Shown here: one piece after another, positions 24,039 through 25,295 of the stretch
Position numbering within the stretch: the stretch's first letter is position 1
How the letters are laid out: each line of letters starts with the position of its first letter
IMG/VR virus record: IMGVR_UViG_3300029415_000001
Source: a virus
Taxonomy: Duplodnaviria > Heunggongvirae > Uroviricota > Caudoviricetes
Reading direction: 5' to 3' (one strand)
DNA length: 64,000 nucleotides
Translations under genes and position numbers: made by a program
The notes under the pieces: generated by a model
Database searches by the model: none
What the model saw: the letters and a program-made list of their open reading frames with translations, nothing else
What the model was told of the DNA's origin: nothing

Positions 24039-25295
24039 TTAATTACTGACAGTTTTGGGTTTTGGGAAACTGAACAGTAAATCACGATAGTACTCGTATT
24101 GTTTCTGGCGCAACTCGATTTCACGCGGAAGACCTTCGGTAATCGAATTTGTTAAGACGTCAAATTTGTCGAGAGTCGCTGCGATTCTGGCTTGTTCGTT
24201 ATAAGATTCCTCCGGATTACCGGGGCATGGGAAGGGGATTTTAATGTCTTTGAGCATCGGTTTAGTTAGCTGGGGTATGCCTGCCTCAGGGATTTTGTAA
24301 TTATTCTCAATGGTTTTCATGAAGTAATAAGCGTACTTCAAGTTTAATTTAATTTTTGGCGTCAAGACCAGCAGTCGCACTATCGGAAAGAATGGTCTAC
24401 TTCTATAGCTAGTCCATCCAATAGTACCTCTTGCAGATATGGTGAGACTCGGTTTCTCAATCTTGGCTCTGTCAGTCCATCCATATAGTGATTTATTACC
24501 TATACCGTTTGATAAAACGGGGATGCTGAATTCCTCGGTCTCAAATTCGGATAAGGCATCTTTTGGTGCATCGCCGCCTGCAACAATGTCAAAAACATCA
24601 TCCAATGCCTTCCACTCAACCTCACCCTCTTTAAAACTCAACAACTGGTCGCGATAGTAGTTGTACTGTTTTTTACGCATGGTAAGCTCAGCGGTAAGCT
24701 CAGCGGTAAGCTCAGCGGTAAGTGCAGTAAATTTATCCAGAATCCGAACGATTTCAGACTGGATGGCAAGGGATTTTTCCGGGGTATCTGGGCAGGGTAA
24801 TGGGATTTTGAATCTTCCCATTACGGCTGAGTTCAAGTTGTTAATGGTTGAGCTATTCAACATTTCATCAAGATATTTTTGGAAAATATCACTTGTTAAA
24901 ACGTGAAATAAATAACGTGGATTTAATTTTTCATCGCATCTGACGACCCCCATAAATCCGCCAAAGTAGTAGTCAATATCAGATTCTATGTAAGCAACTT
25001 TACCGACATGTTCACGGCTACCACTTGCTGCGCTAATTAGAATGTCGTTCTTATATAGCTTTTGCGAACTCTTTACTTTGGTGTCGAACCTCACCACCTT
25101 GACATCATTTAAATTTAAACAATTATTAGACAGCGTGATATTGTTAGCGCGAAGCACTTTATAGCCTTGACCATCCGCGCTTTCACTCGATTTGCTATAA
25201 ATTAAACCACGTACATATTTTGCGACTTCTCCGAGAGTCTTCCACTCAACCTCAACCCCATCCAGCAATTTTTCCAGATAACTCATCTCGCTCAT
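24039..25295 (-). CDS. hsdS: Type I specificity subunit (HsdS), Type IC frame with divergent target-recognition domains
   Basis: Conserved N-terminal ([18 protein letters not shown]), central ([54 protein letters not shown]) and C-terminal ([30 protein letters not shown]) regions of EcoR124-type HsdS; TRDs differ from EcoR124I as recalled. Confidence 0.9.
24681..24728. repeat. 12-bp tandem repeat (3 perfect copies GGTAAGCTCAGC plus 1 imperfect) encoding TAEL repeats in the HsdS central region
   Basis: Direct reading of sequence; corresponds to [14 protein letters not shown] in HsdS. Confidence 0.9.

Follow-up and report, generated by a model that had tools for sequence, protein, structure and literature searches.

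The closest described relatives of the restriction-modification system analysed here are EcoR124I and EcoR124II, in which two copies of a TAEL repeat in the specificity subunit HsdS go with the target GAA N6 RTCG and three copies with GAA N7 RTCG (reviewed by Loenen et al. 2014, PMC3874165). The change from one enzyme to the other is caused by unequal crossing-over at a 12-bp repeat, and interconversion of the two has been seen experimentally (PMC3874165). EcoDXXI and EcoprrI are likewise three-repeat enzymes with a methyl interval of 8 as opposed to 7, the spacer shifts as predicted in EcoR124I/EcoDXXI hybrids with a changed repeat number, and three repeats appear to be the optimum (PMC3874165). 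The rule that ties repeat number to spacer length is also given in PMC7383803 and PMC9159934. A preliminary description of the locus had drawn on this background (two versus three TAEL repeats for N6 versus N7, by unequal crossing-over), and its account agrees with all three sources.

The stretch of DNA that we analysed (the window, 64,000 nucleotides) is a P1-like (Punavirus) phage-plasmid of E. coli, with the P1 genes c1, cre, ref, lpa, pacA, darB, ban and dmt together with P1 tRNAs. An hsd cassette (20538..27030) sits between pap and phd/doc, where P1 has the segment pmgT-pmgU-pmgV-upfM/N/O-hot-lxr-humD; because the cassette replaces this segment, the P1 HumD and Hot functions are absent at this position. 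Comparison with P1 placed the edges of the cassette at the following genes:

20031..20537, plus strand: homologue of P1 pap, left edge of the hsd cassette
27252..27632, plus strand: P1 doc, right edge of the hsd cassette, with phd immediately upstream

The DNA that flanks the cassette shows 98% identity to P1. Misc_features in the P1 RefSeq record describe these same flanks as homologous to the borders of the EcoDXXI and R124/3 hsd loci, so that the setting agrees with the one published for type IC loci.

Two further features of the window lie apart from the cassette. Between ref and darB, a gene at 38993..40300 (plus strand) encodes a 435-aa protein with a SIR2_2 domain (Pfam E 3e-23) and PADLOC matches to PDC-S25, ThsA and LmuA-like proteins. 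In the published P1 map this slot houses mat/res/mod (EcoP1I). A RelA/SpoT-domain protein occupies it in p50579417_1, a plasmid that is otherwise close, and the slot thus looks like a variable hotspot for defence genes. Three tRNA genes at 5025..5178 and 7179..7254 (plus strand) correspond to the P1 tRNA set, namely Asn-GTT, Thr-TGT and one with a CAT anticodon that is called Met by ARAGORN and Ile in the annotation of a related plasmid.

The cassette encodes an hsdM-hsdS-hsdR operon on the minus strand, in the order M-S-R, with these elements:

25292..26854, minus strand: hsdM, 520 aa, matching EcoR124 HsdM over its full length
24039..25295, minus strand: hsdS, type IC specificity subunit, 418 aa, with two Methylase_S domains, a match to 7bst_A and support from AF2/Foldseek
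23982..24011, minus strand: sigma-70-like promoter (consensus match only), a candidate for separate transcription of hsdR, inside the hsdS-hsdR gap
20801..23917, minus strand: hsdR, 1038 aa, matching EcoR124 HsdR over its full length, with an EcoR124_C domain
20586..20608, minus strand: terminator-like hairpin and T-run downstream of hsdR

The start of hsdS overlaps the stop of hsdM by 4 nt (ATGA, 25292-25295), the gap between hsdS and hsdR is 121 nt, and no prrC lies between these two genes. HsdM aligned over residues 1-520 with residues 1-520 of 7bst_D (1145 bits) and HsdR over 1-1038 with 1-1038 of 2w00_A (2257 bits), both near-self scores, and an EcoR124_C Pfam domain was found in HsdR. 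PADLOC and Pfam agree with a type IC assignment, as do the family membership of HsdM and HsdR by sequence, the layout of conserved regions and target recognition domains (TRDs) in HsdS, the TAEL repeats, the M-S-R gene order and the P1 flanks. Judged from its full-length ORFs, the operon is an intact EcoR124-family (type IC) system. It might nevertheless be present without functioning in restriction, for example as a methylase only or as a silent locus, and the repeat number would then have no phenotype. Such a state would suit a promoter recognised by consensus match only, and several type IC loci of E. coli are disrupted by insertion sequences (IS). However, none of the three ORFs is truncated, each can be aligned from one end to the other with a solved EcoR124 subunit, and the hsdS-hsdR block is conserved over many plasmids without one substitution, and we consider a non-functional operon very improbable.

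The HsdS subunit consists of two variable TRDs and two conserved helices:

24795..25250, minus strand: TRD1, spanning roughly aa 16-167, not related to the N-terminal TRD of EcoR124I and 30% identical to that of EcoKI
24642..24782, minus strand: conserved central helix at aa 172-218, modelled by AF2 with 47 residues, which holds the TAEL repeats and forms D1 of the coiled-coil spacer (AF2, 7bst_A, PMC3874165)
24228..24620, minus strand: TRD2, spanning roughly aa 226-356, not related to the C-terminal TRD of EcoR124I
24075..24215, minus strand: conserved C-terminal helix at aa 361-407, modelled by AF2 with 47 residues, the repeat-free partner of the central helix (D2; AF2, 7bst_A)

Pfam found both Methylase_S domains, and 7bst_A, the HsdS chain of EcoR124, matched only at aa 1-34, 161-263 and 361-418, which are the conserved N-terminal, central and C-terminal regions. 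Within this alignment our protein has three TAEL units and the solved chain two, and neither TRD aligned significantly with EcoR124I HsdS (7bst_A). In an AF2 model of the protein (mean pLDDT 82) there are two globular TRDs, helix 172-218 runs unbroken through the repeats, and helix 361-407 is its partner; Foldseek matched the fold to HsdS structures, 7bst_A among them. The two modelled coiled-coil helices are exactly equal in this three-unit protein, at 47 residues each, which fits the remark in the literature that three repeats are the apparent optimum. The preliminary description had called the ORF an HsdS with divergent TRDs. The first call is borne out by the Methylase_S domains, the conserved regions shared with 7bst_A and the surrounding hsdM-hsdS-hsdR operon, and the second by the lack of a significant TRD alignment to the EcoR124I chain.

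The repeats themselves occupy a short tract in the middle of hsdS:

24681..24716, minus strand: three perfect 12-bp units, GGTAAGCTCAGC on the plus strand and GCTGAGCTTACC on the coding strand
24717..24728, minus strand: an imperfect fourth unit, GGTAAGTGCAGT, matching the unit at 9/12 positions and encoding T-A-L upstream of the repeats

Tandem Repeats Finder reported 24681-24722 as a perfect period-12 tandem of GGTAAGCTCAGC with 3.5 copies, 100% matches and a score of 84, and found no other tandem array with a score of at least 50 in the whole 64-kb window. The exact unit occurs three times in the window, head to tail, with starts at 24681, 24693 and 24705, and the first 6 nt of the imperfect unit carry the perfect periodicity on to 24722, giving the 3.5 copies. 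A perfect 42-nt tract of period 12 cannot plausibly have arisen by chance, the probability being 4^-12 for each additional copy of the 12-mer. The TAEL x3 codons lie at nt 24684-24719 and encode HsdS aa 193-204, so that the tract is in frame on the minus strand within ORF 24039..25295. The repeat scan and the search for the exact unit reproduced the three tandem 12-bp units, and the 12 nt that follow them account for the one imperfect copy, that had been described at 24681-24728.

We consider it likely, with a probability of roughly 0.88, that the tract serves as the TAEL "ruler" in an HsdS of type IC (the EcoR124 family) on a P1-like phage-plasmid, setting the target spacer and changeable in its number of units. 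The three 12-bp units encode three Thr-Ala-Glu-Leu turns within the long central helix, which would pair antiparallel with the C-terminal helix and so hold the two DNA-reading domains, TRD1 and TRD2, at a distance from one another. If the enzyme behaves like EcoR124II, EcoDXXI and EcoprrI, three units would put both methylated adenines 8 nt apart, 1 bp more than in a two-unit form, corresponding to a conventional N7 as opposed to N6 for half-sites of the 3-nt/RTNN type. The enzyme would then presumably methylate and restrict a bipartite site made up of a TRD1 half-site, a spacer 1 bp longer than that of the two-unit form and a TRD2 half-site. The 42-bp perfect direct repeat may permit occasional RecA-mediated unequal crossing-over or replication slippage, and gain or loss of one in-frame unit would yield a new spacer, and hence a new specificity, with the TRDs untouched.

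For the three-unit allele we infer from these analogies a methylated-adenine interval of 8, not 7, which is a more robust wording than "N7"; the written N-number hinges on how many bases each half-site specifies, and N6 or N7 is guaranteed only for TRDs like those of EcoR124, EcoDXXI and EcoprrI. Neither half-site could be assigned from relatives. A reading of the TRD1 half-site as AAC, from the EcoKI N-terminal TRD, was rejected because 30% identity (46/151) is too weak. TRD2 had no informative relative among solved structures, and RTGC, which might be taken from the label "EcoprrI subunit S" on two proteins (P0056 and AP027478.1), was also rejected because such labels are generic pipeline names; these two proteins differ from one another in TRDs and repeat number, and prrC is absent beside either locus. 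In the literature available to us, searches on the protein accessions, on phage 673R5 and on methylomes of P1-like phage-plasmid hsdS genes gave no specificity or motif for this allele.

Neither the repeat number nor the TRDs are unusual among type IC systems. We sampled 60 evenly spaced records from the 1089 E. coli records that matched a 96-nt probe, interpreting partial matches from their sequence. Of the 60 loci, about 25 carried at least three units and about 34 carried two, which puts the three-unit state at about 40% of the sampled E. coli type IC loci. Exact patterns identified 11 three-unit and 25 two-unit loci in IMG/VR, and an exact-pattern scan of the same database found no one-unit or four-unit loci. 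The three-unit state is thus common and nothing special. A contrary impression that three repeats are rare, based on finding no three-repeat protein among the best 120 protein-database matches, was discarded as a ranking effect, since the top ranks share a TRD with the query; DNA sampling gives the figure of about 40%. TRD1 and TRD2 each recur, in other combinations and with an identity of at least 90%, in about 60 further cluster representatives of type IC HsdS proteins. Both are therefore widely shared modules, and the allele is a typical product of type IC module shuffling. The preliminary description had predicted a new target with the longer spacer. The longer spacer stands by analogy, in the form of an interval of 8, but "new" does not, as the TRDs are common modules and the allele is present in at least 24 public records.

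Identical copies of the gene are numerous. The hsdS sequence is 100% identical in 23 full-length E. coli records and in record H25, where it is cut by the end of the record, and the HsdS of phage vB_EcoM-673R5 (ON470615.2) is also 100% identical and has three units. In the latter record (L049) hsdS is intact and hsdR and hsdM are annotated in fragments (HsdR1, HsdR2 and two M pieces), which reflect either real frameshifts or sequencing errors of the record. Compared with plasmid p50579417_1, the window is identical over 21201-25351 (0 mismatches over about 4.1 kb, which take in the whole of hsdS, the greater part of hsdR and the 3' end of hsdM) and about 4% diverged over 25352..26873, the rest of hsdM. 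An identical S-R block beside a diverged hsdM is in keeping with module shuffling. It implies that recombination had a breakpoint near the 3' end of hsdM, within the gene, which suggests, from these alignments, that the S-R block has moved between P1-like backbones.

Natural variants of the allele with one unit fewer also exist. In plasmid p1002-1 (strain Z1002) the hsdS gene is this hsdS minus one 12-bp unit (1245 versus 1257 nt), the other residues being identical (414/414), and the HsdM and HsdR proteins have the same accessions as those of the three-unit plasmid p50579417_1. A second two-unit protein, P0001, has the same TRDs, three substitutions in conserved regions and another background. 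Clustering by TRD over 120 protein-database representatives and 36 IMG/VR loci gave further pairs that differ by a single unit with 0-3 extra differences each, namely L004/L016 (three versus two units) and P0014/P0030, P0029/P0078 and P0038/P0083 (two versus one), so that repeat-number polymorphism between otherwise identical alleles is present here (three versus two) and in four other pairs. Single-TAEL HsdS proteins (P0030, P0055, P0078 and P0083) otherwise show 0-1 differences from common two-unit alleles. It is conceivable that the two-unit p1002-1 gene is an assembly or sequencing artefact, a collapsed tandem repeat with no real polymorphism of the allele behind it, as it is one record and tandem repeats can be mis-assembled. 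However, a 42-nt tract is far below any read length, P0001 is an independent two-unit protein with the same TRDs and three other substitutions, and the 12-bp polymorphism likewise occurs in four other allele pairs from independent sources. We regard an artefact as exceedingly improbable.

The comparisons of existing alleles indicate that the tract changes in nature, at least over evolutionary time scales. A statement that the allele could switch by gain or loss of a repeat thus finds support in p1002-1 and P0001, each lacking one unit, and in the similar variation of four other TRD combinations. Any such switching is probably infrequent. Three units are present in all 23 of the full-length identical records, in H25 and in the phage copy, though consensus assemblies cannot show minority variants, and these records include re-sequenced derivatives of the same strains (strain 405 four times, 2020N21-110 and its derivatives, and 2022N21-074 and a derivative). 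Therefore, we favour rare mutation over rapid phase variation, and we found no evidence for fast switching among the identical public records.

The same uniformity could mean that the tract is a fixed structural feature, three units being a stable optimal helix length and the two- and one-unit relatives being rare one-off mutations without an adaptive role, possibly less active or inactive. The equal 47-residue coiled-coil helices of the modelled three-unit state point in this direction, and an exact two-unit counterpart is known only once (p1002-1). However, most type IC loci have two-unit alleles, EcoR124I is fully active with two units (PMC3874165), at least five TRD combinations show polymorphism by a single unit, and the interconversion of EcoR124I and EcoR124II was observed in experiment (PMC3874165). 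A fixed tract is a possibility, though in our judgement a somewhat unlikely one, and we retain the reading of the tract as a changeable ruler.

Tracts of four or more units were recovered from five E. coli loci:

L044, CUVET21-PYO5 chromosome: 4 units, hsdS split by ISEc45
L047, NC101 chromosome: 5 units, the same ISEc45-split hsdS as in L044
L045, S30 plasmid C: 5 units, hsdS split by IS1
L048, 1916D6 chromosome: 5 units, hsdM truncated beside IS2
L046, strain 33-6 chromosome: 8 units, IS1 at the hsdM/hsdS junction

All five are disrupted by insertion sequences, in four independent events, as compared with about 4 of about 42 assessable loci with two or three units. The CUVET21-PYO5 and NC101 loci are one ISEc45-split locus with 4 units in one strain and 5 in the other. 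Tracts of 4-8 units in E. coli imply that the tract is able to expand too. These loci were found through partial matches and a one-unit probe, and their counts are lower bounds: a synthetic four-unit BLAST probe missed the true four-unit L044, probably owing to low-complexity masking. The exact four-unit pattern was absent from IMG/VR and from GTDB species representatives, and in metagenomes it identified four loci with four to six units (L051-L054), one of which is clearly decayed. In another, the four-unit L053, the hsdS ORF is apparently intact, and the association of long tracts with disrupted loci thus has exceptions.

Tentatively, we suggest that the tract is inherently prone to expand and contract and that function limits it to two or three units, occasionally one. 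A stronger version would make the TAEL tract a truly unstable contingency element of P1-like phage-plasmids, steadily yielding variants with N-1 and N+1 spacers, with selection holding intact systems at 1-3 units. If this were so, spacer variants would change restriction specificity in a way useful against other phages and plasmids, and the 4-8-unit tracts in IS-inactivated E. coli loci would expose an expansion bias after selection was lifted. We give this stronger version only a small chance of being correct.

The mechanism at this locus is well known, and its TRD combination is uncharacterised yet already sequenced. We see the locus as a clean instance, from nature, of the classic spacer-length mechanism of EcoR124I/II in a widespread family of P1-like phage-plasmids from clinical E. 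coli, with little weight beyond cataloguing. What it adds is modest, namely a natural pair of three-unit and two-unit alleles and a link of tract length to operon integrity. With its two-unit sibling in p1002-1, the allele offers a ready natural pair for the rule that one turn equals one base pair, with different TRDs, and the survey of repeat lengths hints at how selection bounds the tract, two and three units being common, one rare, and four or more in E. coli confined to IS-disrupted loci. Once read from a methylome, the motif would be of practical use for transforming or phage-typing strains that carry these plasmids.

Among sequenced relatives, phage vB_EcoM-673R5 and about 24 P1-like plasmids of E. 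coli (for example p50579417_1, WP_072196859.1) have an identical HsdS in the same genomic slot, and their HsdS records carry no functional annotation past "restriction endonuclease subunit S". Like the phase-variable type I hsdS genes with simple sequence repeats (Atack et al. 2020, PMC7383803), the gene has a tract within hsdS whose length would alter the output of the methyltransferase. However, the tracts described there mostly toggle expression by frameshift, whereas here a 12-bp in-frame unit would alter geometry, with no sign of high-frequency variation.

The resemblance to EcoR124II and EcoR124I of plasmid R124 extends to near-identical HsdM and HsdR, the same conserved regions of HsdS and the same 12-bp TAEL unit in the central helix. 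The three-unit state is that of EcoR124II (GAA N7 RTCG), and the natural two-unit variant parallels EcoR124I (N6). In contrast to EcoR124, both TRDs are unrelated to those that recognise GAA and RTCG, and the half-sites should therefore differ; the residue pair after the repeats is T-M rather than N-M, and the system is carried by a P1-like phage-plasmid, not by a conjugative plasmid such as R124. It also resembles EcoDXXI (TCA N7 RTTC) and EcoprrI (CCA N7 RTGC), type IC enzymes that likewise have three TAEL repeats, with an interval of 8 between their methylated adenines (PMC3874165), and according to the P1 RefSeq annotation the EcoDXXI locus shares its P1 flanking sequences with this cassette.
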